Below the pieces are notes generated by a model. It was not told the DNA's origin and did not search any database. It was given only the letters and a program-made list of their open reading frames with translations. Below, piece after piece: positions 3,166 to 25,384 of a DNA stretch of 36,220 bases. Position 1 is the stretch's first letter; every line of letters begins with the position of its first letter. The stretch lies in the NCBI GenBank assembly GCA_964547305.1, contig CAZJMI010000001.1, positions 1 to 36,220 of the forward strand, in the 5' to 3' direction. The position numbers and the translations under genes were made by a program. Source of the DNA: an uncultured Gammaproteobacteria bacterium (GTDB taxonomy: Bacteria; Patescibacteriota; Patescibacteriia; UBA2591; JBAYNP01).

Positions 3166-3191
3166 GGGACGTTTTAGGACGTCCCTTTTTT
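3166..3191 (+). terminator. Rho-independent terminator
   Basis: Stem GGGACGT (3166-3172) pairs with ACGTCCC (3179-3185), with a 6-nt loop, followed by TTTTTT (3186-3191). A separate perfect 8-bp hairpin, GTGACTGT-gcat-ACAGTCAC, sits at 3110-3129 without a T tract. Confidence 0.7.
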
Positions 3192-3268
3192 GTTTGCGCG
3201 GAGATTCGTGAGTGGGATATTGGCGGGGTGATGACAGGTGTGGTAGAATAGTAATGTGAGGTATTTAA

Positions 3269-8860: not shown

Positions 8861-9388
8861 ATGAAACGAAAAGAAAACAATTACGCCTTTATAGATAGTC
8901 AAAATCTGAATTTAAGCATTCAATCTTTAGGCTGGAAGCTAAATTTTAAAAGATTTCGAGTTTATTTAAGAGAAAAATATTTAGTTGAAAAGGCCTATAT
9001 TTTTATAGGATATATTGAGGGCAATAATGATTTATACACTAGCTTGCAAGAGGCTGGTTTTATCTGTATATTTAGGCCGACATTAAAATACAAAGACGGA
9101 ACAATAAAAGGTAATTGTGACGCGGAATTAGTTTTACAGGCCATGATTGATTATAATGATTATGATAAGGCCGTTTTAGTGACAGGAGACGGGGATTTTC
9201 ATTGTTTAGCTAAATATTTAATTGATAATAATAAGTTCAAGGCCCTGATTATTCCTAATGGGTTTAAATTTTCCGCCTTGTTAAAAATGAAAATTTTTCG
9301 AACATTTTTGCGTTATCTCAACGGTTTAAAAAATAGATTGGAGTATAAAAAAGAAAAGGCCCCAGAAGGACGAAACCTTAAGGGGTAA
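8861..9388 (+). CDS. NYN-domain (LabA/DUF88-like, PIN-related) putative RNase
   Basis: NYAFIDSQNL at the N-terminus, then NCDAELVLQAM and VLVTGDGDFHCL, are the conserved acidic motifs of NYN domains. The gene is visibly more AT-rich than its flanks. Confidence 0.7.
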   Translation: MKRKENNYAFIDSQNLNLSIQSLGWKLNFKRFRVYLREKYLVEKAYIFIGYIEGNNDLYTSLQEAGFICIFRPTLKYKDGTIKGNCDAELVLQAMIDYNDYDKAVLVTGDGDFHCLAKYLIDNNKFKALIIPNGFKFSALLKMKIFRTFLRYLNGLKNRLEYKKEKAPEGRNLKG

Positions 9389-9575: not shown

Positions 9576-10343
9576 ATGCTTTCAAATTTTATCCGACAAC
9601 AACGCATCAAACGCCAAATAACTCAAGCAGAGCTGGCGGGGGAGCTGGGCATTTCCCGTCCCACCTATTTGCAGATTGAGCGTGGCGAAAGGGAGCTCAC
9701 TATATCCGAAGCCAAAAAGCTGGCGGCGGTTTTTGGTTTGTCGCTGGAAGATTTTTTGGAGGCGCGGGAAGCAAAAAGCGAGGTGACTTTGGCGAAACCA
9801 GTGACCAAAAAACCGGAGACCTTACAAATTCGCGTCACACGGAAAAATATAGATAAATTCAAGCAAGTTTTGCTGTATGTGTTGAATAAAGTCGGCGGTA
9901 AACCCAATGTCGGCGAGACAGTTTTGCAAAAGTTATTGTATTTCATTGATTTTGATTACTACGAAAAGTTTGAGGAAAGTTTAATGGGGGCGACTTATAT
10001 CAAAAATCATCATGGACCCACTTCCATCGAGCTGGGGGCGATAGTCAAAGAAATGCAGAAAGATGGCGAATTGGAGGTCGTAAAGAGTCAGTACTTCAAA
10101 TATCAGCAAAAGAAATATCTGGCACGAAAACGCCCCAATCTGGAAATACTCTCGGCGCGTGAGATAGAACATATTGACGATGTCTTGGCGCGGCTGGCGG
10201 ATAAAAATGCCGGTGAAATAGAAAAATATTCGCACGAAGATATTCCTTGGAAATCCGCGCAAGATGGCCAGCAACTTTCTTATGAAAGTGTTTTTTATCG
10301 CGACGAAAGGTATTCGGTAAGAAATTATGATGATGAACTTTAA
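9576..10343 (+). CDS. XRE-family HTH fused to a DUF4065 (Panacea / SocA-GepA-like) domain; putative antitoxin
   Basis: The N-terminus ITQAELAGELGISRPTYLQIERGERELTISEAKKLAAVFG is a Cro/C1 HTH. The C-terminus KFKQVLLYVLNKVGGKPNVGETVLQKLLYFIDFDYYEKF...YIKNHHGPTS matches the DUF4065 pattern. Confidence 0.7.
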   Translation: MLSNFIRQQRIKRQITQAELAGELGISRPTYLQIERGERELTISEAKKLAAVFGLSLEDFLEAREAKSEVTLAKPVTKKPETLQIRVTRKNIDKFKQVLLYVLNKVGGKPNVGETVLQKLLYFIDFDYYEKFEESLMGATYIKNHHGPTSIELGAIVKEMQKDGELEVVKSQYFKYQQKKYLARKRPNLEILSAREIEHIDDVLARLADKNAGEIEKYSHEDIPWKSAQDGQQLSYESVFYRDERYSVRNYDDEL

Positions 10344-10674
10344 TGAACTGCCAGAATTTCAGAAAGAATTCAAGCAACTGGGCAAAAAATACAGGTCATT
10401 GCCAAACGATTTGCGAGAGTTTCGCAAGGTAGTCGCCGTCATTCCGCTCGGCAACAGCAAGCATTTTAATATTATCGCTCAAACGGAGACAATTTGCGTG
10501 TTAAAAGTTAGATTATTTTGCAAATGTTTGAAAGGTAGCTCCTTGCGCATTATCTGCGCGTATTGTGAACGAGAACGGCGTATTGAATTTATGGAAGTGT
10601 ATTTTAAAGGCAACAAGCCGAATGAAAATAGCGCGCGGGTGAGGGGGCATTTGAAGTCCTTATCAGTAAAATAG
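10327..10674 (+). CDS. Putative RelE/ParE-superfamily (HigB/Gp49-like) toxin
   Basis: It overlaps the upstream gene by 17 nt (ATGATGATG within ...YDDEL*), which suggests translational coupling. FQKEFKQLGKKYRSLPNDLREF at the N-terminus and SSLRIICAYCERERRIEFMEVYFKGNKPNE at the C-terminus fit the RelE/ParE-like layout. The assignment is by pattern only. Confidence 0.5.
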   Translation: MMMNFNELPEFQKEFKQLGKKYRSLPNDLREFRKVVAVIPLGNSKHFNIIAQTETICVLKVRLFCKCLKGSSLRIICAYCERERRIEFMEVYFKGNKPNENSARVRGHLKSLSVK

Positions 10675-10756: not shown

Positions 10757-13312
10757 ATGGCAAGTGAGTTTAATTTAGCTTATAGTAAAACCATGGAAAA
10801 AACACCCAATTTTCATAAAATTTCCGAAGAGAGAAAAGAATTACGGCGGACTATTAGTACGGAACTTGATATTGATGTTAACAAGGCGAGAAAAGATGGG
10901 CTAGACAAGGTGGATGACCCTATGTTTCAAAAGCATTATAAAGATGAATTCGCGGATAAAGACGCGCAAGCAAAGGGTTTTAAAATTCCCAGAGTTCATG
11001 ATGAGAGTAAAAGAAAAACAGCCAAAGTCAAAGATAGTAAAGGTGTTGAAACTGATGTTGAAGTTGAAGTTAAGGATTGGACGGCGGCAAAAAATATGCT
11101 CAAAGAGCAAAGGGCGGACTATGGAAAAGAATTAGCTAAATCAGAAATTGACCGCGAAGTGATTTTTGAAGAAAATCCGGAATTAAAGGAAGTGCTGGAA
11201 ACAATAGACCAAATAGCCGATTTAAAAAATTTCCGTATGCGACGCATGTTGGAAATTTTAAATAGGGGAATTTCACCAGCGACCAAAAAACGCAATACGG
11301 CGATATTGGAAACTATCAAACAAGAAATTAGCGAGCATACAAATGAATTAGGGCAAGCGGATTTGAATATCTTACGGCAAGCCGAACTGGTAAAATATAA
11401 AGAAAATTTAGGTCAAAGCGGGCATATTTGTATTACACCGTCAGTGGAAAGGGATTTAGACGCGGTGGGCAATAGAATTATTACCGGCAAGCCGATATTT
11501 TTACACGGACCGACCGGTACCGGCAAGACCTCTTTGGCTAGATTCGCGGCGGAGCATTTTACTGGCAAAAATTCAGAAATGGTTTTTTGTAATCCGCAAA
11601 CCAAAGAATCAAATGTGTGGGGCAAAACCGGCATTAAGCCGACTAAAGGCGGAGCCATAGAAACAGTTGAAATATATGGGCCGTTGGCGAAGGCCATGGC
11701 GGAAGGTAAGACGGTTATTTTTGATGAGTTTACCGCCTTGCCAAAAGAGCAGATGGTTTTTATTAAGGGAATTTTTAACGCCAAAATCGGCGATAGCATT
11801 AATATAGTTGGTAATGGCATTGTGAATATTAAGCCGGGCTTCCAGATGATTTTTACTTCCAATTTAAAATCAGGGAAAAACCCTGAAAGGCAGGATTTGC
11901 CCCCGGAAATCGCGCGTGAGTTTGAACAAAATAATTTAGAAATAGAATATACGCCGATAGAAGAGGCCTACGATATTATGCTGACACGGCTGGCAAGTGA
12001 AGATGGCGCAATTGATATGTCTTACTATGATTTAAAGACTACTCTGCCGAATTTGTGCAAAGCGATGGCTAACATTCAGGGGGCATATACTAATGAAACT
12101 GATAATGACCTAGCTAAAACGATTGGAGCCATAGATGTTTCTGGCAAGGCACCCGCGCTGAAAAAATTTGTTTTAACTCAAGGCACGGTAGAAAATATTT
12201 TATCAGCATGGCTAATAAGAAAAAAAATTGGTGAAAATGATATGACATTTGCTGAATTTTTAGACGATAGATTGAAAATCGCGTTGACTTTTAAAGAATA
12301 CCCTAAAGAAGATCGTATTTTAGCCGCTAAAATTTTGGCCGCGCGAGGTTTTCTAACTACCCTAGATGTCCAAGACATGGGCTTGTCAAACGACATCCTG
12401 GCTTTTGACACGGCTAGAGCATTGCGAGGCGAAGAAGCAGTTGAGGGGTTGAGGGAAAAATCGGGGGCGGTCAAACATTTAACCCTAAAACAAGTGGCCG
12501 AACTGGACCCGTTTCAAAAAAGAGCAGAGCGGTTGGGCGATATAGCAGACGCACTGTTGGAGCCCGAAGCAGGAGAAGAAAAAACCGACCCCGAATTAAA
12601 TGATATTCTTAAAAAAAGAAAAAAAATCGCTGGCGAAAAAGGAATAACCAAAAATCCAGAAATTCGTACTATCTACGAGGGAAAGGATATCGCTATCAAT
12701 ATAGAAACCAAAATTCAAGAATATCTTGATTTCTATCAGAAAAGCGGCGTTGCCGTGGATGCCGATTTTGAAAATACTATAAGGGGTATCTGGGCAAGGG
12801 ATATTGATAAAATTCAAGCAGAAATTGAAAAATATGGCTTTGACGAAGTGCTACTCATCCCATCCATCACCGACCTGGCCGACTTGGCGGAAAAGATGAA
12901 AACTACTACCAACGACCACTGGTTGAGTGATAATTTCAAGGATGGCGAGGGCTGGGCGGGAGCCAAAAGCCAGCATGCCAATCTACCACGGATAGTATTG
13001 GTACATAAAAATGGCGCGCGAAACATATCTGACCATCCCGAGTTGGCCAAGACCAAGAATATTTTAGGCAGTGATGTTAATTTAGCCGCAACCCTGTCTT
13101 TGGAAGAATATCTTATCTTCCAGAAAAAATACTTTGAAGATACAGGCGAACATCTAGATTCTAAAAATAGCTGGACTTGGTTGGCCACCAAATCGGGCGT
13201 TTGTCTCGTCTGCGCTTCTTGGGCTTCTGACCGGCTCCGTGTGGATGCCTGTGGCCTTGACGCTCAGAGTGCCGATTTGGGCGCTCGCCCCTCCCGCAGT
13301 TTCTCATTGTAG
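10757..13312 (+). CDS. DGR target 1: AAA+ (AAA_5/MoxR-like) ATPase with a C-terminal hypervariable lectin-like module carrying VR1
   Basis: The track ORF starts at TTG 10727; the first ATG is 10757 (MASEFNL). Walker A is FLHGPTGTGKTSLAR, Walker B is TVIFDEF, and FQMIFTSN is sensor-1-like. The last ~200 aa are paralogous to the C-terminus of 17236-18285. The final 101 coding nt before ...RSFSL* form VR1. Confidence 0.85.
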   Translation: MASEFNLAYSKTMEKTPNFHKISEERKELRRTISTELDIDVNKARKDGLDKVDDPMFQKHYKDEFADKDAQAKGFKIPRVHDESKRKTAKVKDSKGVETDVEVEVKDWTAAKNMLKEQRADYGKELAKSEIDREVIFEENPELKEVLETIDQIADLKNFRMRRMLEILNRGISPATKKRNTAILETIKQEISEHTNELGQADLNILRQAELVKYKENLGQSGHICITPSVERDLDAVGNRIITGKPIFLHGPTGTGKTSLARFAAEHFTGKNSEMVFCNPQTKESNVWGKTGIKPTKGGAIETVEIYGPLAKAMAEGKTVIFDEFTALPKEQMVFIKGIFNAKIGDSINIVGNGIVNIKPGFQMIFTSNLKSGKNPERQDLPPEIAREFEQNNLEIEYTPIEEAYDIMLTRLASEDGAIDMSYYDLKTTLPNLCKAMANIQGAYTNETDNDLAKTIGAIDVSGKAPALKKFVLTQGTVENILSAWLIRKKIGENDMTFAEFLDDRLKIALTFKEYPKEDRILAAKILAARGFLTTLDVQDMGLSNDILAFDTARALRGEEAVEGLREKSGAVKHLTLKQVAELDPFQKRAERLGDIADALLEPEAGEEKTDPELNDILKKRKKIAGEKGITKNPEIRTIYEGKDIAINIETKIQEYLDFYQKSGVAVDADFENTIRGIWARDIDKIQAEIEKYGFDEVLLIPSITDLADLAEKMKTTTNDHWLSDNFKDGEGWAGAKSQHANLPRIVLVHKNGARNISDHPELAKTKNILGSDVNLAATLSLEEYLIFQKKYFEDTGEHLDSKNSWTWLATKSGVCLVCASWASDRLRVDACGLDAQSADLGARPSRSFSL

Positions 13313-13347
13313 GGTAGCTTGTAGCTTGAGTACTTTTAACTTCTTGT
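12812..13347 (+). repeat. Paralogous segment A (target-gene 3' module plus about 50 nt beyond the stop); partner is 17779-18320
   Basis: The DNA is mostly identical in blocks. One example is CAGAAATTGAAAAATATGG.TTTGACGAAGT...CGACTTGGCGGAAAAGATGAAAACTAC. The 34-nt block GTAGCTTGTAGCTTGAGTACTTTTAACTTCTTGT is identical at 13314-13347 and 18287-18320. A diverged middle section separates the blocks. Confidence 0.8.
13194..13294 (+). repeat. DGR variable repeat 1 (VR1)
   Basis: It aligns without gaps to the TR over 101 nt. There are 20 differences: 18 at TR adenines and 2 elsewhere. It ends in the shared block TTGGGCGCTCGCCCCTCC. Confidence 0.9.
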
Positions 13348-13596
13348 TCTTTTTTACTTTTTTATTTTTTGCCCCCGTTTCGGCTAGTATAACCACAAAT
13401 AAACGATTGATTGGTTTGCCGAAGCACTCAAACAAATAAAGACCGGCGGCTGGCGCATATTCTTTTTGCGCGCTGGGTAGTTTGTTTGGTGGTGTGTTAT
13501 AAACAAGGAACTGCAGTTTTGTATTGGGAAATGACACCTGATAAATGGAGTATGGTTTCCTCGCTTGGAGCGGATAATACAAGACCAAAAGAGGGG

Positions 13597-13697
13597 CGGG
13601 CGTTCGTCTCGTCAACGCTAATTGGAATTCTGACAAGCTCAATGTGAATGCCAATGACCTTGACTATCAGAATGACAATTTGGGCGCTCGCCCCTCC
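13597..13697 (+). repeat. DGR template repeat (TR)
   Basis: An intergenic 101-mer collinear with VR1 and VR2. It contains 24 adenines and eight AAY codons in the VR frame (..N A N W N S D K L N V N A N D L D Y Q N D N L G A R P S). Its 3' flank diverges from the VR flanks (IMH*-like). Confidence 0.9.
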
Positions 13698-13712
13698 AGC
13701 CGTTCTGTGGCT

Positions 13713-14051
13713 CTAGTTCATGTTCCTGGTGTATTTTATCCAGCCCTGTGTCATTTTGCCGATTTCTTGCAGGGCGGCTTCTTGTTCAAGATAGCTTTTG
13801 GTGTCAATTATTTTACAATTTAGAGTTATCCTAAATAATATTTTTAGCAATTCTATTTTGCAATTAGCCTTGAGTAATATTTTTTCCTTTTCGTATTTTG
13901 AGGCGCAAGCCGCGAGAATAAAAAGCTCTACGCTGTCTAAAATCGCGTTTTCTGTTTTTTCTCCAAGTGAATATCTTTCATGTTTAGGAAATTTGAATAT
14001 AATTTTGTGAGTGGTTTCATAAAGACGGAACAATTTAACCGTTATGGGCAT
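13713..14051 (-). CDS. avd: Avd-like accessory protein (four-helix-bundle / 23S rRNA IVS protein family)
   Basis: The track ORF is 13713-14087. An internal ATG at 14051 gives MPITVKLFRLYETTHKIIFKFPKHERYSLGEKTENAILDSVELFILAA..., the typical N-terminus of four-helix-bundle (Avd/IVS) proteins. Size (about 112 aa) and its position next to the TR and RT also fit. It is AT-rich. Confidence 0.75.
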   Translation of the reverse strand: MPITVKLFRLYETTHKIIFKFPKHERYSLGEKTENAILDSVELFILAACASKYEKEKILLKANCKIELLKILFRITLNCKIIDTKSYLEQEAALQEIGKMTQGWIKYTRNMN

Positions 14052-14072
14052 TTCTAAATTGGAAAAATTAGT

Positions 14073-15065
14073 ATGATTATTATCCATAAAAATTATGATG
14101 AATTATTTAGTGTTGAGAATATTTTAATTGCGTGGCAAAGATTTAGGCGGGGAAAGTCCAACAAAAAAGATGTGATAAATTTTGAAGCGCATTTAGAGGA
14201 TAATCTGTTTAGTTTGTCTGGCGATTTGCGAAGCCATATTTATAGGCATTCAGCTTATGGTTATTTTCAGATTTTTGATAATAAAGAGCGGGATATTTAC
14301 AAGGCACAAGTCCGAGATAGAATAATCCACCAAATTATTTATGATCATTTGTCGGAGATATTTGAGCTGGAGTTTATAGCCGATTCATATGCTTCAAGAA
14401 TAGGTAAAGGGCAATATAGTGCGATAAACGCGTTGAAGTATTTTGTTAAATTGATTAGCGGGAAAAATCGGCGGCAATGTTTTATTTTAAAATGTGATGT
14501 TAAAAAATATTTTGATAATATAGATCAAGTAATTTTGCTTAATTTAATAAAAACAAAAAATATTGATGGTGAAGTATTAAAAATTATTATGGAAGTGATA
14601 TACAGCTTCCTATCAAATGTGGGAATGGGCAAAGGCATTCCGTTGGGTAATATTACCAGTCAAATTTTTGCGAATATTTATTTAAATGTATTAGACCAAT
14701 ATGTTAAGAATGAATTGAAATGCCGGTTTTATATAAGATATAACGACGATTTTGTAATAATTACGGACAATAACAAAAAACTGAAAGAAATCAGAGAAAA
14801 GATTATTATTTTTGTCCAGAATAAACTGCTTTTAGAAATACCATTAGCCAAGACTAGCATTAGAAAAATTAGTTGGGGCGTTGATTTTTTGGGTTTTAAT
14901 GTGCTGAAGGGGGCAGTTTTGTTGCGGGACAAAACCAAGCAAAAAATATACTCAAAATTAAGCGAAAAAAATATAAATTCCTATCTTAGTATTTTAAAAC
15001 ACTGCAATTCGTATAATTTGACGAAAAAAGTTTTGGCTATGGCAACGCCCCGCGAAATTTGCTAG
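14073..15065 (+). CDS. DGR-type reverse transcriptase
   Basis: RT motifs: DRIIHQIIYD; CDVKKYFDNID; GIPLGNITSQIFANIYLNVLD (the DGR-typical xGNxTSQ motif); RYNDDFVIIT (YxDD catalytic box); GVDFLGFNV. About 330 aa with no maturase/endonuclease extension. It is adjacent to the TR. Confidence 0.9.
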   Translation: MIIIHKNYDELFSVENILIAWQRFRRGKSNKKDVINFEAHLEDNLFSLSGDLRSHIYRHSAYGYFQIFDNKERDIYKAQVRDRIIHQIIYDHLSEIFELEFIADSYASRIGKGQYSAINALKYFVKLISGKNRRQCFILKCDVKKYFDNIDQVILLNLIKTKNIDGEVLKIIMEVIYSFLSNVGMGKGIPLGNITSQIFANIYLNVLDQYVKNELKCRFYIRYNDDFVIITDNNKKLKEIREKIIIFVQNKLLLEIPLAKTSIRKISWGVDFLGFNVLKGAVLLRDKTKQKIYSKLSEKNINSYLSILKHCNSYNLTKKVLAMATPREIC

Positions 15066-15074
15066 TATAGATAT

Positions 15075-17219
15075 ATGGAAAACCCAATAGAGCAACCAAA
15101 ATTAGTAGAAACAAAAAAAGTCAAGAGTGGCGGTGGGGAAACGGCGGAAAATCAGCGCGCCGAAAACAAACATGCCGAGGCAGTGGCATTTTTTGAAAAT
15201 AACCGCGATTATTTTGATAGCTACGCCGGAGGTCGGGTAAATATAGAACCGGCTCCGCCGAGTATTCCAACTTTTGCTTTTGATTTGGAAAAAACGCCTC
15301 CGACTATCTATGTCAATTCCATGTTTTATAAAAAACAGGGACTTTCGGATGTTAAGACGCGCTTTGCAATTTGTCATGAGATAGAGCACTTTTTGGAAAA
15401 AATGAATATGCTAGACGAATATGGCGGTGAAAAGAAATTTGAAAGGTATTTAAAAAAACTGAAAAGCTCAAGGTGGGAAAAATTATTGGATAATTGTGTC
15501 GCGGATATTAGAGAAAATCGGTCGGTGGTAGCGAGAACTAATGAAGCCGAAAGAGAGCTGGAGATTAAAATGTATCAAGAAGATTTATTTCCAACAACGG
15601 ACTTTACCGAGCAACCCAAGCACATTCAATTTGCGGAGGCGCTTTTGAGAGAGGCGCGCGTGCCGGATGAGAAATGCCAAGTGGCACCGGAGGTTAGGCA
15701 GGCGTTGGATGAATTAGTCGCAGAAGCGGCGAAAATTAAAAAAACAAAAAATATAGACCTGATGGACATTTTGACTCATCCAGAGACCCCGATGTCTAAG
15801 CGGTTGCAGTTACAGGAAAAGTTTATTGAGCCGAAAATGAAAAAACTTTTAGAGCAGGACATTGAGGATAAAAAGAAGCAAAAAAAGAAGGGTGAAAAAG
15901 GTGAAAAAGGTGAAAAAGGCGAGCAGGGCGAAGGAGAGCAAGGAGAGGGTGGGCAAGCGGATAGCGAACAGCATGAGGATAAAAAAGATAAAAACAAAGA
16001 TAAGGGCAAAAGTGGGGACGAGAAAAAAGATAATTCTGAAAAGAACGGGGAAAAGAATGAAAATAATAAGGACGAGGAGGGTGAGCAAGAAAAAAATGCC
16101 GATGAAAAGAACGAAGAGAAAGGCGAAAAGGGAGCCGGCGGTCAAGAGCAAGAAGAGACCGATCCCGATAAAATATTTTCTGATGATTATGAGGCGGTAG
16201 AAAAGAAATTTCCCGAAGCTATGCCCATAGAAGAGGCAGAAAAGGCCTTAAAAGAATGGCAAGTCAAACAAAAAGAAAATAGTCCCGAAAGAATGCTGGA
16301 CAGGGCGGATGAAGAGTATGCCAGGAAAATCGGGGTAAAAAAAGAGGATTTGCAAAACTACAGAAACGCGGTTAAAGCGCTGGAAAAAATAATCAATCCA
16401 GAAACCAATGTGGCGGTTTTGGAGGAATTGAAAGACCTCTTTGCCAGAATAATCGCCAAAAGGATTAAACCGGTGCCCGCGCCAAAATATCCGGTAGATG
16501 AAGGCGAAGAATTGGTTGATGTGGTGGGAGCAGTGGTAGAACCGCGAGCCGGGAATTTACAGCCCAGAGTTTGGGAGACCACGGAAATCAAAGAGAAAAA
16601 AGGCGACCGTTTCGGTGAGGTGGAGATTACTTTGGTTTGCGACCGTTCCGGTTCCATGCAAGAGGGGCAAAAAGCGCCCGAACAGCGCAAATCGGCGATT
16701 TTAATGATGCGGGCATTAAAGGAATTTGCCGAAATGTGTGAAGAAGAAAAAATAAATTTAGAAAAATCATTGGAAATAAAATCGGAAATTTACAGTTTTG
16801 CCAATAGCGCGGAAGATGGCGCGCCAATAAAGAAAATGTCCGCCGAGCTGGGCGAGGTTGAACAGATAATAGTATTGAAAAAATTGTACGATTTGTCCGG
16901 CGGCCGCACTACCGATTTTAATTGTCTGGAGGCAATCAGTGTCAAGATGGATGATGAGATTAAGCGAAAGATCAAAGATGGCGAACTGAAGAAAATTGTC
17001 ATTATCTTTACCGATGGGGGAAGTCACGGCGTGGAGCGAGTACAAGTGGCTTTAAAAACTTTGCGCGATGACGGCGTGGCGGCTATAGGAATAGGCGTCA
17101 CCGCCACGGGCGCAGAGGTCTTAACTACTTACGCGCCGGATGCCCTAGTGGTGGAAGAAGTGACTAGATTGCCGCTGGTTTTGGGCGACCTGCTCAAGGA
17201 ACATTTGAAGGACTTGTAA
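15075..17219 (+). CDS. HExxH metallopeptidase-like N-domain, K/E/G low-complexity linker, and C-terminal vWA domain protein
   Basis: FAICHEIEHFLEKM supplies HExxH. A ~110-aa linker rich in K/E/G spans roughly 15850-16170. The vWA MIDAS is VEITLVCDRSGSM ... GGRTTDF ... VIIFTDGGSHG. The combination resembles DUF2201_N plus VWA partners of MoxR-type ATPases; this rests on pattern recognition only. Confidence 0.75.
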   Translation: MENPIEQPKLVETKKVKSGGGETAENQRAENKHAEAVAFFENNRDYFDSYAGGRVNIEPAPPSIPTFAFDLEKTPPTIYVNSMFYKKQGLSDVKTRFAICHEIEHFLEKMNMLDEYGGEKKFERYLKKLKSSRWEKLLDNCVADIRENRSVVARTNEAERELEIKMYQEDLFPTTDFTEQPKHIQFAEALLREARVPDEKCQVAPEVRQALDELVAEAAKIKKTKNIDLMDILTHPETPMSKRLQLQEKFIEPKMKKLLEQDIEDKKKQKKKGEKGEKGEKGEQGEGEQGEGGQADSEQHEDKKDKNKDKGKSGDEKKDNSEKNGEKNENNKDEEGEQEKNADEKNEEKGEKGAGGQEQEETDPDKIFSDDYEAVEKKFPEAMPIEEAEKALKEWQVKQKENSPERMLDRADEEYARKIGVKKEDLQNYRNAVKALEKIINPETNVAVLEELKDLFARIIAKRIKPVPAPKYPVDEGEELVDVVGAVVEPRAGNLQPRVWETTEIKEKKGDRFGEVEITLVCDRSGSMQEGQKAPEQRKSAILMMRALKEFAEMCEEEKINLEKSLEIKSEIYSFANSAEDGAPIKKMSAELGEVEQIIVLKKLYDLSGGRTTDFNCLEAISVKMDDEIKRKIKDGELKKIVIIFTDGGSHGVERVQVALKTLRDDGVAAIGIGVTATGAEVLTTYAPDALVVEEVTRLPLVLGDLLKEHLKDL
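15891..15917 (+). repeat. Tandem 9-nt repeat (GGTGAAAAA x3) inside a purine-rich low-complexity tract
   Basis: GGTGAAAAAGGTGAAAAAGGTGAAAAA encodes GEKGEKGEK. It is followed by the degenerate GGCGAGCAGGGCGAAGGAGAGCAAGGAGAG. Confidence 0.8.
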
Positions 17220-17235
17220 TTTAAATTATAAAAAT

Positions 17236-18285
17236 ATGAAAAATGAATTTTCGGAGCTAAAACTGTCGAAAAAAGTCGTTCCAAAACAAGAAAAGGATGG
17301 AAACCCTGCCCGACAAGAAAAATCGCAAGATGAGTTGCGGACAAGAATGGAAGAGAGAATTAAACTTTTGTCGGCAGACCTAGACCAAAAAATAGCGGAT
17401 TATAGGCAAGCGAAGAAAGAAGGTTTATTTGAAGACCAGGATGGCGAGACTGAAGGTAGCGGAGAAAATAGAAGAAAAGCAGCTCTGGAAGAAATGAATG
17501 TTATTGGCGACCGTGGAGTAAAAATGCGGGATATGCTAGATAGAGGAGAGGGCTTGCCACAATTTCAGAGTGAGATTTCTACTGCCTACAAGTATACTAT
17601 TGAAGAAACCGATCCACAGACAAACAAGGTGGCTAAAGTGGAAAAAAACGAAAAGATTAATATAGACATAGAACAAAAAATAACCGATTTCAAAAAACTG
17701 TATAAAGATACAGGAGTAAGCACTCCTAAAAATTTTGAAGATATTATTCTAAACATTTGGAATGATAATTATGACGCTATCCAGGCAGAAATTGAAAAAT
17801 ATGGTTTTGACGAAGTCCTGCTCATCCCACCCATCACCGACCTAGCCGACTTGGCGGAAAAGATGAAAACTACCGACAGGGATCACTCGTTGAGCGATAA
17901 CTTCAAGGATGGCGGTGGCTGGGCCGGAGCTAAAAGCCAGCATACCAACCAGCCACGGATAGTTCTCGTCCACAAGGTCAAAGAGCTTGATAACCATCCC
18001 GCGACTCAAGCTACATTAGGTAAAACAGGACAAGAGATAATAGATGACCCGGAGTTGGGATATAAGGGAATATTAGACCTGGGCGAGTACCTTATTTTTC
18101 AAAAGAAATATTTTGATGAAACTGGCGGACATTTAGATGAAAATAAATGGGTTTGGTTAGCCACTAAATCGGGCGTTCGTCTCGTCAACGCTATTTGGGA
18201 TTCTGGCAGGCTCCATGTGTCTGCCGATGGCCTTGACGTTCAGTTTGACCATTTGGGCGCTCGCCCCTCCCGCAGTTTCTCATGA
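17236..18285 (+). CDS. DGR target 2: charged N-terminal region plus a paralogous C-terminal lectin-like module carrying VR2
   Basis: The C-terminal ~200 aa (IQAEIEKYGFDEVLLIPPITDLADLAEKMKTT...WVWLATKSGVRLVNAIWDSGRLHVSADGLDVQFDHLGARPSRSFS*) parallel the C-terminus of target 1. The last 101 coding nt before RSFS* form VR2. Confidence 0.85.
   Translation: MKNEFSELKLSKKVVPKQEKDGNPARQEKSQDELRTRMEERIKLLSADLDQKIADYRQAKKEGLFEDQDGETEGSGENRRKAALEEMNVIGDRGVKMRDMLDRGEGLPQFQSEISTAYKYTIEETDPQTNKVAKVEKNEKINIDIEQKITDFKKLYKDTGVSTPKNFEDIILNIWNDNYDAIQAEIEKYGFDEVLLIPPITDLADLAEKMKTTDRDHSLSDNFKDGGGWAGAKSQHTNQPRIVLVHKVKELDNHPATQATLGKTGQEIIDDPELGYKGILDLGEYLIFQKKYFDETGGHLDENKWVWLATKSGVRLVNAIWDSGRLHVSADGLDVQFDHLGARPSRSFS
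18170..18270 (+). repeat. DGR variable repeat 2 (VR2)
   Basis: It aligns without gaps to the TR over 101 nt. There are 14 differences: 13 at TR adenines and 1 elsewhere (the same T/G site as in VR1). Confidence 0.9.
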
Positions 18286-18417
18286 GGTAGCTTGTAGCTT
18301 GAGTACTTTTAACTTCTTGTCCCTTGTTACTTTTTTATTTTTATTTTTTACCCACCCTTGAACCCCGCCCACAAATAGTGTAAAATAGGGGCAGTTTTTA
18401 ATTTTAAACATAAAGTT

Positions 18418-22347: not shown

Positions 22348-22483
22348 TAATTATGCCGATTTTGGGCCCGATGGGCAAGGGGGATACTGATTGGTGCGCG
22401 GCGACGGGTTGACTTATTATGTATATTATGATAAGATAAAAGGGTTGAAAATGGTTGTTTAAATTTGAAAAAAGGAGGGTGAG

Positions 22484-25311: not shown

Positions 25312-25340
25312 TTGACATATTTGGTATATTATGTTAAGAT
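25312..25340 (+). promoter_or_regulatory. Sigma70-like promoter (TTGACA - 17 nt - TGtTAAGAT)
   Basis: TTGACA at 25312-25317 and TAAGAT at 25335-25340 with an upstream TGt. Confidence 0.4.
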
Positions 25341-25384
25341 TTAAGTGCCATTGATAAATTCAGAAAACAAAAAAGGAGGTTTTT

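Follow-up and report, generated by a model that had tools for sequence, protein, structure and literature searches.

The DGRs of the CPR have been described as having architecture B3, in which the order is TR-(avd)-RT and the targets are 'UVR4'/AAA-ATPase proteins (Wu et al., 2018, PMC5758913), and DGR clade 2 is restricted to the CPR (Roux et al., 2021, PMC8144416). CPR DGRs have also been described by Paul et al. (2017; cited in PMC10907252). The BPP-1 DGR has the layout mtd-VR, avd, TR, Sp and brt, and the order of the elements within Sp is given in the preprint by Handa et al. In this system, Sp47-56 is fully complementary to VR 118-127 and imperfectly so to the TR, which has been proposed as the basis of the homing direction (Naorem et al., PMC5703328). 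DGR-associated MoxR-vWA (VMAP ternary) conflict systems are known from cyanobacteria and gammaproteobacteria (Kaur et al., 2020, PMC7159879; Doré et al., 2024, PMC10907252).

The locus analyzed here lies in a window of 36,220 nt, i.e., the whole stretch of DNA that was examined, and very probably represents a chromosomal, complete DGR that has architecture B3, TR-(avd)-RT, and belongs to the CPR/Patescibacteria lineage. An earlier note on this DNA had claimed a complete DGR, and adenine-specific divergence, a DGR-type RT, Avd and intact target ORFs are indeed all present. The gene order is AAA-ATPase target with VR1, TR, (avd), RT, HExxH-VWA protein and small target with VR2:

10757-13312, plus strand: target gene 1 (851 aa), N-terminal AAA+ ATPase and C-terminal variable domain
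13194-13294, plus strand: VR1, 3'-terminal variable repeat of target gene 1, with its GC block at 13279-13294
13597-13697, plus strand: TR, noncoding, 24 adenines, GC block at 13682-13697, followed by the IMH*-like flank AGCCGTTC at 13698-13705
13713-14087, minus strand: avd (PF22296 bAvd, 59.4 bits, cut-off 40)
14073-15065, plus strand: DGR reverse transcriptase (330 aa; LGNITSQ and YNDD motifs; RVT_1 at 1.9e-18)
15075-17219, plus strand: HExxH-VWA cassette gene (VWA at 9.7e-8, aa 518-684)
17236-18285, plus strand: target gene 2 (349 aa), C-terminal variable domain as in target 1
18170-18270, plus strand: VR2, 3'-terminal variable repeat of target gene 2, with its IMH-like flank at 18271-18282

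Cassettes with an inverted avd were found at about 25 loci, all in Patescibacteria, and the cassette described here is a further member of the published, widespread CPR DGR type. It shares with this type the gene order, the inverted avd, the CPR host, the chromosomal location, an AAA ATPase target fused to a C-terminal variable domain, a single TR serving several targets and the lack of a hairpin after the IMH, and there is no essential difference. The published accounts of CPR DGRs that were consulted, Paul et al. (2017) apart, describe no HExxH-VWA gene inside the cassette, no structured leader of ~220 nt located 5' of the TR, no post-VR motif and no T-before-A changes. The new elements arising from the comparison are the covarying leader, a primer-like strand favouring the VR flank and the T-before-A changes. 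The earlier reading of the sequence had missed the inverted avd, the known CPR cassette type and the absence of a BPP-1-type hairpin.

Computed alignment of TR, VR1 and VR2 yielded collinear 101-mers without gaps, reproducing what had previously been aligned by hand, including the 24 TR adenines and every mismatch count. VR1 differs from the TR at 20 positions, 18 of which are TR adenines, the other two being C13605->T and T13665->G. VR2 carries 14 mismatches, 13 on TR adenines, and the sole exception is again T13665->G. The enrichment at adenines is significant for both repeats (Fisher one-sided, p = 5.9e-13 for VR1 and 3.8e-9 for VR2). With A replaced by N, the TR pattern fits only TR, VR1 and VR2 in the window (0 matches expected by chance), and a repeat finder independently recovered the same family. 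Between VR1 and VR2 there are 18 differing positions, 17 of them at TR adenines; the two VRs have been rewritten independently of each other, as had been suggested, and the TR/VR divergence is adenine-specific. Read in the VR frame, the TR holds 16 adenine-containing codons, half of which are the eight AAY codons counted before (seven AAT, one AAC). All 24 adenines occupy codon position 1 (nine) or 2 (15), and AAG is the only stop-capable codon. About 6e14 peptides are possible from these codons; relative to the TR translation, VR1 is changed at 14 positions and VR2 at 10. In the wider family (33 TR/VR pairs from 18 loci), 471 of 491 mismatches (96%) fall at TR adenines, while the non-adenine changes are concentrated on T directly 5' of A.

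Ordinary paralogy would require a duplicated C-terminal domain and a pseudogene fragment, shaped by normal mutation and selection, next to an unrelated RT. The two targets are true paralogues over ~210 aa and a 57-nt repeat lies behind both genes, as this explanation would have it. Nevertheless, the mismatches sit on TR adenines, the bias is directional with the A always in the TR, the same preference holds across the related pairs, and avd and RT always adjoin the TR, so that the explanation retains practically no probability. Ordinary paralogous repeats are refuted by the computed TR/VR alignments.

The RT with its LGNITSQ and YNDD motifs had been taken for a DGR RT, and this assignment held when it was compared with solved structures and with an HMM set. 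The closest solved structure in a PDB search is 8ub7 (BPP-1 bRT; 115.5 bits, 3.3e-32), vs. 66 bits or less for the best group II RT. The residues aligned to I181/G182/Q187 of bRT are L/G/Q, inside an invariant P-L-G-x-x-T-S-Q. At E<=1e-10 the RT has 1867 relatives; every genome-derived locus among them belongs to Patescibacteria, which is also the only lineage-named match. It could be argued that the enzyme comes from a group II intron, retron or DRT system and that the repeat pattern is coincidental, given that group_II_RT_mat is the top NCBIfam match by score (137.9 bits) and that relatives carry the JGI label 'retron-type reverse transcriptase'. Such an origin is highly improbable, since every group II, retron and DRT model scores far under its curated cut-off (137.9 against 300 for group_II_RT_mat, 49 against 235 and 69 against 200), the nearest solved relative is a DGR bRT, Rfam detected no group II intron or retron RNA, the 330-aa protein has no maturase or endonuclease extension, motif 4 contains SQ and not SP, and Avd adjoins. 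The Avd-like gene reported beside the TR stands, as PF22296 scores above its cut-off, but its minus strand had gone unnoted. NF033474 (DivGenRetAVD) reaches 73.2 bits on Avd, just short of the equivalog cut-off of 80. The avd gene runs opposite to TR and RT, with the starts of avd and RT overlapping head-to-head, and position and orientation are identical in all related loci; no extra synonymous constraint was found in avd.

Both VRs close intact ORFs at their 3' ends and make up the last ~36 codons of the targets (33 in the repeat and three in the flank). Target gene 1 starts with ATG at 10757, in an ORF already open from TTG 10727, and encodes a MoxR/dynein-type ATPase (PF07728 AAA_5 at 8.9e-13, aa 257-382) with the Walker A motif GPTGTGKT; homologous AAA-fused targets are present in related loci. 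In target 2, a part with coiled helices and a beta region precedes the C-terminal 210 aa, which are 63% identical to target 1, and its AF2 model has a pLDDT of 88.8 overall and 96.7 in the C-terminal domain. Foldseek gave no match of any kind for the variable domain at E<=0.001 in PDB or BFVD, although C-type lectin (CLec), FGE and Mtd entries were weakly enriched. The HExxH-VWA protein consists of an N-terminal HEIEH region, an acidic/Lys-rich linker and the C-terminal VWA domain. HEIEH is invariant in 17/17 homologues, the gene lies beside or near RT in nearly all related loci, and the protein is likely a partner of the AAA+ target. One feature is shared with the VMAP ternary systems: a MoxR-type AAA+ ATPase and a protein with a vWA domain accompany the DGR, and a peptidase-like module (HExxH at this locus) lies close by. 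In those systems, however, the CLec/FGS variable domain is on the vWA protein, whereas here it is on the AAA+ ATPase and a stand-alone protein; the RT is of clade 2 here and clade 5 there, and Pfam bpMoxR scores only 20.2 at this locus, under its cut-off of 27. The locus showed no VMAP, TIR or caspase effectors. The role of the DGR may be to vary the ligand-binding tips of a MoxR-like AAA+/VWA machine in a bacterium that depends on a host.

With BPP-1 the locus has in common adenine mutagenesis, AAY-rich TR codons, an RT-Avd pair (the RT sequences match at 3e-32), and a GC-rich block followed by differing IMH/IMH* flanks. In contrast to BPP-1, avd is inverted and occupies the place of Sp, the locus is chromosomal and not phage-borne, an AAA+ ATPase and a small paralogue serve as targets instead of a tail fibre, and the variable domain is not demonstrably of the CLec fold. 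Also unlike BPP-1, there is no GC-rich hairpin or cruciform after the IMH, although the hairpin was looked for. The remaining comparison concerns the flanks of the repeats and the RNA:

13295-13306, plus strand: VR1 IMH-like flank CGCAGTTTCTCA, complementary to leader strand 13507-13514
13313-13329, plus strand: post-VR motif GGTAGCTTGTAGCTTGA, copy 1, conserved
18286-18302, plus strand: post-VR motif, copy 2, inside the 57-nt repeat
13377-13507, plus strand: 5' part of the leader RNA, with hairpin P1 at 13377-13425, hairpin P2, which is variable, at ~13426-13490, and an A-rich linker
13508-13599, plus strand: leader domain B, with primer-like strand, P3, P4, A-rich stretch and TR 5' flank
13508-13514, plus strand: primer-like strand GAACUGC, followed by the invariant A 13515
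13515-13525 with 13576-13586, plus strand: helix P3, 11 bp, with covariation
~13526-13538, plus strand: small stem-loop P4 of domain B
13587-13591, plus strand: AAAAG of domain B, followed by the G-rich 5' flank of the TR

The shared 3' end of the three repeats is GGGCGCTCGCCCCTCC, beyond which the flanks diverge. The IMH/IMH*-like divergence described earlier is strengthened by the C(TR)/A(VR) difference, which was seen again in many related loci. As a small correction to it, similarity runs ~7 nt beyond the GC block (AGCCGTT in the TR, CGCAGTT in the VRs) and the match reaches 13704. The 57-nt repeat after target gene 2 is 95% identical to 13313-13369. The post-VR motif has two matches in the window against 0.02 expected and is kept behind the VRs of related loci; no hairpin formation by it was found.

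A structured leader of ~220 nt, conserved and covarying, sits 5' of the TR. The covariance model R1 matches each locus exactly once, in every case immediately 5' of the TR (E 3e-18 to 9e-30), and no Rfam match was obtained for the leader. In an alignment of roughly 16-20 related loci, which form only 3-4 groups, RNAalifold revealed compensatory changes in seven of 12 P1 pairs; P3 is paired in 98.5% of cells, with compensatory changes in five pairs and a covariation score reached by none of 500 shuffles. The window's own MFE fold gives all helices including P1 and P2 (z = -2.4). After P4, domain B holds an unpaired A-rich stretch and the invariant GGUUUCC and GAUAA. A predicted 15-bp helix closing the TR (13591-13605 with 13682-13696) is paired in 87% of cells, as opposed to 43-60% for slid controls, and includes six compensatory pairs; no conserved structure was found downstream of the TR.

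The structured RNA, which is 5' and not 3' of the TR, looks like a circularly permuted DGR RNA in which primer strand, 11-bp duplex, small stem-loop and adenosines follow each other as in the BPP-1 spacer. Judged by element order and base-pairing logic, with neither sequence nor 3D similarity, the leader may be the functional equivalent of Sp, shifted to the 5' side of the TR. GAACUGC-A (13508-13515) would then be the counterpart of the primer strand Sp47-56, P3 that of the 'cPRT stop' duplex, and P4 with the following adenosines that of the Sp71-81 stem-loop and A-minor adenosines. The leader RNA offers new clues to DGR priming and targeting. In most loci the VR flank pairs at 7/7 positions with the primer-like strand, so called for its position; within the largest group, the TR flank reaches 6/7. 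The duplex of the strand with the VR flank is the stabler one in 16/16 loci, with mean energies of -11.1 kcal/mol for the VR flank, -7.9 for the TR flank and -3.9 for shuffles. Three variants of strand and flank covary (CTGC/GCAG, CAGC/GCTG and TAGC/GCTA), and cognate pairs outscore non-cognate ones. As in BPP-1, an RNA strand complements the IMH better than the IMH*. From the closer fit of the primer-like strand to the VR flank GCAGTTTC than to GCCGTTC beside the TR, we infer that RNA-linked cDNA may be sent to the IMH and not back to the TR.

Rather than recognizing the DNA target, the leader could pair in cis with the VR1 flank (13297-13304 with 13507-13514) when target 1, leader and TR are read through into one transcript, the helix then having a structural or regulatory role, a possibility that we consider doubtful but worth weighing. 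VR1 is always found ~200 nt upstream of the leader and on its strand, the plus strand between the two yielded no sigma-70-like promoter, and the plus-strand genes are packed operon-like. However, Sp47-56 of BPP-1 fits the VR IMH perfectly and the TR IMH* imperfectly, in a pairing thought to act at the DNA target; there, avd and the TR lie between the VR and Sp, and the VR is several hundred nt upstream. VR2, 4.6 kb away, also keeps the same flank, which could equally be explained by the encoded …SRSF.

As a working DGR, the locus would have RT and Avd bind a plus-strand RNA comprising the ~220-nt leader and the 101-nt TR, and RT would copy the TR from its GC-rich 3' end towards its 5' end with misincorporation at adenines. 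The cDNA would replace VR1 or VR2 at the C-terminal codons of the MoxR-type AAA+ ATPase or of the small paralogue with the same C-terminal domain, and the 16 adenine-containing codons would be recoded.

Current activity is unproven because no VR variation was seen across assemblies. Two further assemblies of this population carry an identical VR2, the only SNP (18042) being outside the VR, and the VRs of two relatives are identical in assembly pairs from different samples. These observations, together with T13665->G being common to both VRs, would suit a fossil DGR, in which both VRs were rewritten in the past, movement ended and the VRs are now fixed alleles. It appears unlikely that this is the case, as assemblies are consensus sequences that hide minority variants and some may come from the same or related samples, whereas RT (YNDD), Avd and both target ORFs are intact and the TR adenines are all still at codon positions 1 and 2. 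Furthermore, non-adenine mismatches are rare (1-2 per VR), which argues for little decay since the last homing.

The two variable repeats (VR1 and VR2), located at the 3′ ends of target genes 1 and 2, and the template repeat (TR) were aligned by script, and the genes of the cassette were annotated, giving the following features.

10757-13312, plus strand: target gene 1, encoding an AAA_5 (MoxR/dynein-type) ATPase domain at residues 257-382 with the Walker A motif GPTGTGKT
13194-13294, plus strand: VR1, a gap-free 101-mer relative to the TR
13597-13697, plus strand: TR, a 101-mer with 24 adenines
13713-14087, minus strand: avd, encoding a bAvd-family protein
14073-15065, plus strand: RT gene, encoding 330 residues with RVT_1 as the sole Pfam domain
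15075-17219, plus strand: gene of the VWA protein, whose N-terminal HEIEH motif is invariant in 17 of 17 homologues
17236-18285, plus strand: target gene 2, the last 210 residues of its product being 63% identical to the end of the target 1 product
18170-18270, plus strand: VR2, a gap-free 101-mer relative to the TR

VR1 differs from the TR at 20 positions, 18 of which are TR adenines (Fisher p = 5.9e-13), the rest being C13605->T and T13665->G. VR2 shows 14 mismatches, 13 of them on TR adenines (Fisher p = 3.8e-9), and the remaining one is T13665->G, as in VR1, so that non-adenine decay amounts to just one or two positions per VR. The same bias was observed in 33 TR/VR pairs from 18 loci, in which 471 of 491 mismatches (96%) fall on TR adenines. 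Between VR1 and VR2 there are 18 differences, and since 17 of these are adenine-templated, the two targets must have been rewritten separately, in independent past events. The three-copy family was also returned by an independent repeat finder, and a search with the TR pattern, every A being replaced by N, matched only TR, VR1 and VR2 in the window, with 0 matches expected by chance. In the frame shared by the two target genes, eight TR codons are AAY and 24 of 24 TR adenines occupy codon position 1 or 2; in the rest of both genes about 30% of A occupies codon position 3. Only one TR codon (AAG) is stop-capable, and about 6e14 different peptides are theoretically possible. A 16-nt block consisting of G and C only, GGGCGCTCGCCCCTCC, closes each of the three copies, and the sequence past it is CGCAGTTTCTCA at the VRs and AGCCGTTCTGTGG at the TR; as these sequences indicate, some similarity runs on for about 7 bases beyond the block. 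The C/A difference between TR and VR flanks is seen again in relatives. From its sequence, the locus would therefore have a GC-rich element and an IMH (the VR-end flank element) where the VR ends, and an IMH* of different sequence where the TR ends, as expected for a DGR. The hand alignment of the earlier note was thus reproduced exactly, together with its 24 TR adenines, its mismatch counts, the eight AAY codons, the common GC-rich end block with diverging flanks and the independent rewriting of the two VRs.

The RT was found to be closest, among solved structures, to the BPP-1 DGR RT (8ub7; 115.5 bits, E 3e-32, residues 5-293 aligned), with group II RTs reaching at most 66 bits in the same PDB comparison. 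The motifs LGNITSQ and YNDD are invariant across the family, and motif 4 (P-L-G-N-I-T-S-Q) aligns with I181/G182/Q187 of bRT, residues that touch the template and the incoming nucleotide. Having a motif 4 of the form [LIV]GxxxSQ and a YxDD motif, and being devoid of maturase and endonuclease domains, the RT can be presumptively assigned on sequence grounds to the DGR clade. A group II intron was rejected (TIGR04416 137.9 vs a cut-off of 300; no Rfam group II match around the locus, even at E<=10), as was a retron or DRT (retron St85 49 vs 235; Drt3a 69 vs 200; no Rfam matches). More generally, no real Rfam match was obtained for the whole window at the gathering threshold or for 13250-14150 at E<=10, and no tRNA was found in a search of the window.

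The product of avd matches PF22296 (bAvd) with a score of 59.4 against a cut-off of 40, and NF033474 with 73.2, below the equivalog cut-off of 80, while its comparison with the PDB gave no sequence match. The start codons of avd on the minus strand and RT on the plus strand overlap head-to-head by 15 nt (14073-14087), an arrangement kept in all related loci, and the promoter of avd must consequently be located within the RT gene. The minus strand has a weak -35/-10 match at 14119-14092. The earlier note had described an RT with LGNITSQ and YNDD motifs and an Avd-like gene beside the TR and had interpreted the whole as a complete DGR; both its observation and its interpretation were right, and all parts of the DGR are intact.

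Database searches returned 1867 relatives of the RT at E<=1e-10, the closest having 66% identity, and the genome-derived loci belong to Patescibacteria (CPR) MAGs in 19 of 19 cases. By self-comparison, TR/VR pairs with an adenine bias were recognized in all six loci fetched later and in 13 of the 19 related loci examined first, the other six of which are mostly short or truncated contigs. The gene order is conserved as AAA-target/VR, TR, inverted avd, RT, VWA protein and small target/VR. The succession of TR, reverse-strand avd and RT in a CPR host fits the B3 type (PMC5758913). According to Wu et al., the B3 architecture TR-(avd)-RT occurs in 90% of CPR DGRs, and their UVR4 targets matched the Midasin/AAA domain (PMC5758913), while Roux et al. 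reported that CPR DGRs form their own RT clade 2 (PMC8144416). The published descriptions matched by the cassette also include that of Doré et al., citing Paul et al. Given this agreement, the locus belongs to an already known type: as a complete DGR it falls into the well-documented B3/AAA-target type of CPR bacteria, a base finding that is ordinary for the field and, representing one more case of the commonest CPR type, adds little. The added value lies in the leader RNA, its relation to the IMH, the VWA/HExxH partner and the changes at TA sites.

Concerning the VWA protein, the HEIEH motif (HExxH, metallopeptidase-like) corresponds to residues 101-105, the N-terminal 275 residues are covered by no Pfam family, and there is a long low-complexity linker rich in Glu, Lys and Gly. 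In a comparison with MoxR-vWA (VMAP ternary) systems, AAA_5 and VWA were found to be present and bpMoxR scored 20.2 against a cut-off of 27, but no VMAP or effector domain was found in the neighbourhood. PADLOC produced only generic RT matches and none for the AAA_5/VWA proteins. The fixed link between an AAA+ ATPase, an HExxH-VWA protein and a second variable protein hints at the targets of the DGR in host-dependent bacteria. For the variable domain itself, sequence searches of the PDB and Pfam were empty. The AlphaFold (AF2) models have high confidence, with a pLDDT of 88.8 over the full length and 96.7 over the C-terminal 210 residues. Foldseek searches of the PDB and BFVD with full-length and domain models yielded no match with E<=0.001, and nothing at all in BFVD. 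The weak PDB matches (E 0.05-2.6) included many C-type lectins, formylglycine-generating enzymes (FGE) and Mtd itself, and on the basis of these model comparisons a divergent CLec fold is plausible. The hypervariable columns of the family alignment fall on the positions coded by adenines.

The noncoding stretch of 284 nt between target 1 and the TR shows strong conservation even between loci with a protein identity of only 40-66%. The comparative inferences on the leader, the IMH, the VWA/HExxH partner and the TA sites were drawn from about 16-25 related loci. The leader is a predicted RNA of about 220 nt 5′ of the TR, with hairpins P1 and P2 followed by domain B (a primer-like strand, P3 and P4), and its main paired elements are listed below.

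13377-13425, plus strand: P1, 7 of 12 pairs with double changes
13515-13525 paired with 13576-13586, plus strand: P3, 11 bp, 98.5% of cells paired, 5 double-change pairs
after P3: P4, a small stem-loop, followed by unpaired A-rich sequence and by GGUUUCC and GAUAA, both invariant
13591-13605 (G-rich 5′ TR flank) paired with 13682-13696 (GC block): the TR-closing helix, 15 bp

The covariation score of P3 was reached by none of 500 shuffles, and slid controls pair at 38-55%. Similarly, the TR-closing helix is 87% paired in 19 loci vs 43-60% in slid controls and shows 6 compensatory pairs. A covariance model of domain B (13508-13599) gave exactly one match in each locus, in every case adjoining the TR on its 5′ side (E 3e-18 to 9e-30), and the minimum-energy fold of the window shows P1, P3, P4 and the TR-closing helix (z = -2.4). 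Large insertions in the leader occur at fixed points, with about 330 nt before P1 in the related locus L001 (about 1210-1700) and additional hairpins in the loop of P1 or the P2 region of the related loci L017 (about 3190-3215), L025 and L026; these points mark variable peripheral elements. On the 3′ side of the TR, which is antisense to avd, no conserved fold was found in an 18-locus alignment (consensus -1.1 kcal/mol), nor was excess synonymous conservation seen in avd near the TR. A 3′ spacer RNA for this lineage was rejected on these two grounds.

In BPP-1 the spacer RNA (Sp) lies 3′ of the TR, the order of its elements being known from the preprint of Handa et al. By analogy, each of these elements would have a counterpart in domain B. 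The primer strand Sp47-56, which pairs with the IMH*, would correspond to GAACUGC at 13508-13514, which can pair with the flank 3′ of the GC block and is directly followed by the invariant A 13515. Sp59-70, which pairs over 11 bp with sequence directly preceding the TR to give the 'stop' duplex, would be represented by P3, likewise 11 bp long and with its 3′ strand about 10 nt upstream of the TR. The small stem-loop Sp71-78 and the unpaired adenosines Sp79-81 may be equated with P4 and the A-rich unpaired stretch past it, respectively. The most economical reading, based on element order and pairing logic and not on sequence similarity, would be a relocation of the Sp module to a place 5′ of the TR, which fits the fact that avd fills the 3′ side in B3 elements.

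The pairing of the primer-like strand was found to vary in concert with the flank. Changes in the leader heptamer are matched by changes in the flank, three combinations being found across loci (CTGC/GCAG, CAGC/GCTG and TAGC/GCTA), and cognate leader/flank pairs are better than cross-group pairs. In the largest group the leader pairs at 7 of 7 positions with the VR flank GCAGTTT and at 6 of 7 with the TR flank GCCGTTC (U opposite C), and an extended pairing of 10-13 bp is possible with the VR flank only. In 16 of 16 loci the leader forms a more stable duplex with the VR flank than with that of the TR (mean -11.1 vs -7.9 kcal/mol; shuffled leaders -3.9). Since the VR flank codes for a conserved C-terminus (…SRSF) and the leader encodes no protein, it is the leader that appears to be adapted to the VR flank. 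In BPP-1, the complementarity of Sp47-56 (UAGGUGGUCA) was found to be perfect for VR 118-127 and imperfect for the TR (-16.7 vs -10.0 kcal/mol). That Sp47-56 complements the VR better than the TR was already noted by Naorem et al. (2017), who proposed that a cDNA-linked RNA primer pairs with IMH DNA and sets the direction of homing (PMC5703328). The CPR family may thus offer independent comparative support for this idea.

The complementarity of the leader could also reflect a helix formed in cis between the leader and the VR1 flank, both being parts of one read-through transcript. This explanation, which we consider rather unlikely, agrees with the lack of a promoter-like site between the VR1 flank and the leader, the promoter scan having returned no convincing plus-strand promoter between VR1 and the TR. 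A more far-reaching reading, which we hold tentatively and with somewhat less than even confidence, is that the CPR DGR RNA is a circular permutation of that of BPP-1, with an Sp-like module 5′ of the TR because the inverted avd occupies the 3′ side, that the primer-like strand has co-evolved with the IMH flank and not with the TR flank, and that the RT may also miscopy U located 5′ of a template A. If this reading is true, the co-evolution of leader and IMH would constitute natural phylogenetic evidence that cDNA-attached RNA guides homing by base-pairing with the IMH; papers of 2024-2026 still describe the route of the cDNA into the VR as unknown. The approximately 25 loci with one cassette and differing sequences represent a natural mutagenesis series, and the covariation between the RNA strand and the IMH opens the RNA-guided homing proposed by Naorem et al. 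to direct tests in another, very distant lineage.

The miscopying of U in this proposal concerns the non-adenine TR-to-VR changes, which are not random. A T directly 5′ of A was altered in 10 of 59 cases vs 3 of 696 for any other T (p = 1e-9); nine of the 10 altered sites changed to G, mostly in TAY codons. The change shared by both VRs of the window is such a case (sites 13665 in the TR, 13262 in VR1 and 18238 in VR2), and others were found in the related loci L007, L009, L014, L017, L023, L025 and L026. This pattern suggests either a second, weaker miscopying signature of the RT lineage or recurrent selection at Tyr codons.

Two other contigs of the same population were identified through a TR-pattern scan and an exact-protein look-up (JGI 3300028191 and ENA ERZ27248920), the scan returning one contig and the look-up two. 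VR2 is identical in the window and both other assemblies, and over the 1.2-2.3 kb compared the sole difference is an A/G at 18042, outside the VR, which results in Ile/Met in target 2. Variants of VR1 from the same strain were not found by the pattern scan of metagenome contigs or the exact-protein look-up. Identical VRs were likewise seen in two relatives when assemblies of different samples were compared. Because assemblies are consensus sequences, identical VRs neither prove nor exclude activity.

Downstream of every VR-bearing gene, at a distance of 6-20 nt, the motif GGTAGCTTGTAGCTTGA, comprising two GTAGCTT heptamers, was detected and is conserved in most relatives. Its two copies in the window are contained in a 57-nt repeat.

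13313-13329: post-VR motif after target gene 1, within the repeat copy 13313-13369
18286-18302: post-VR motif after target gene 2, within the repeat copy 18286-18342

The motif, which folds into no hairpin, occupies the place of the BPP-1 hairpin. No inverted repeat or stable DNA fold indicative of a hairpin or cruciform was found after the IMH of either VR or in the relatives; a GC-rich inverted repeat at this position is a BPP-1/Legionella feature that occurs in about 34% of DGRs and is not defining (PMC5758913). Pairing of the motif with the leader was rejected, as the best duplexes lie at inconsistent places.

Beyond the DGR, the window represents ordinary chromosome and not phage, with genes for a [FeFe]-hydrogenase, pyruvate phosphate dikinase and an S12/EF-G/EF-Tu/L3 cluster. 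Directly upstream of the DGR there is a group of three genes. The first is an NYN-domain gene (8861-9388), a homologue of which is situated between the RT and VWA genes in the related locus L016. The second is an HTH + SocA/Panacea antitoxin-like gene (9576-10343), overlapped by a 115-aa ORF (10327-10674) that has no family match and is possibly the toxin of the SocA/Panacea-like gene. Finally, a promoter-like repeat, TTGAC(T/A)-N17-TAAGAT, was observed at 22409-22442 and 25312-25345, the two copies being 82% identical over 34 nt, and it is probably this genome's local consensus for promoters of the sigma-70 type.
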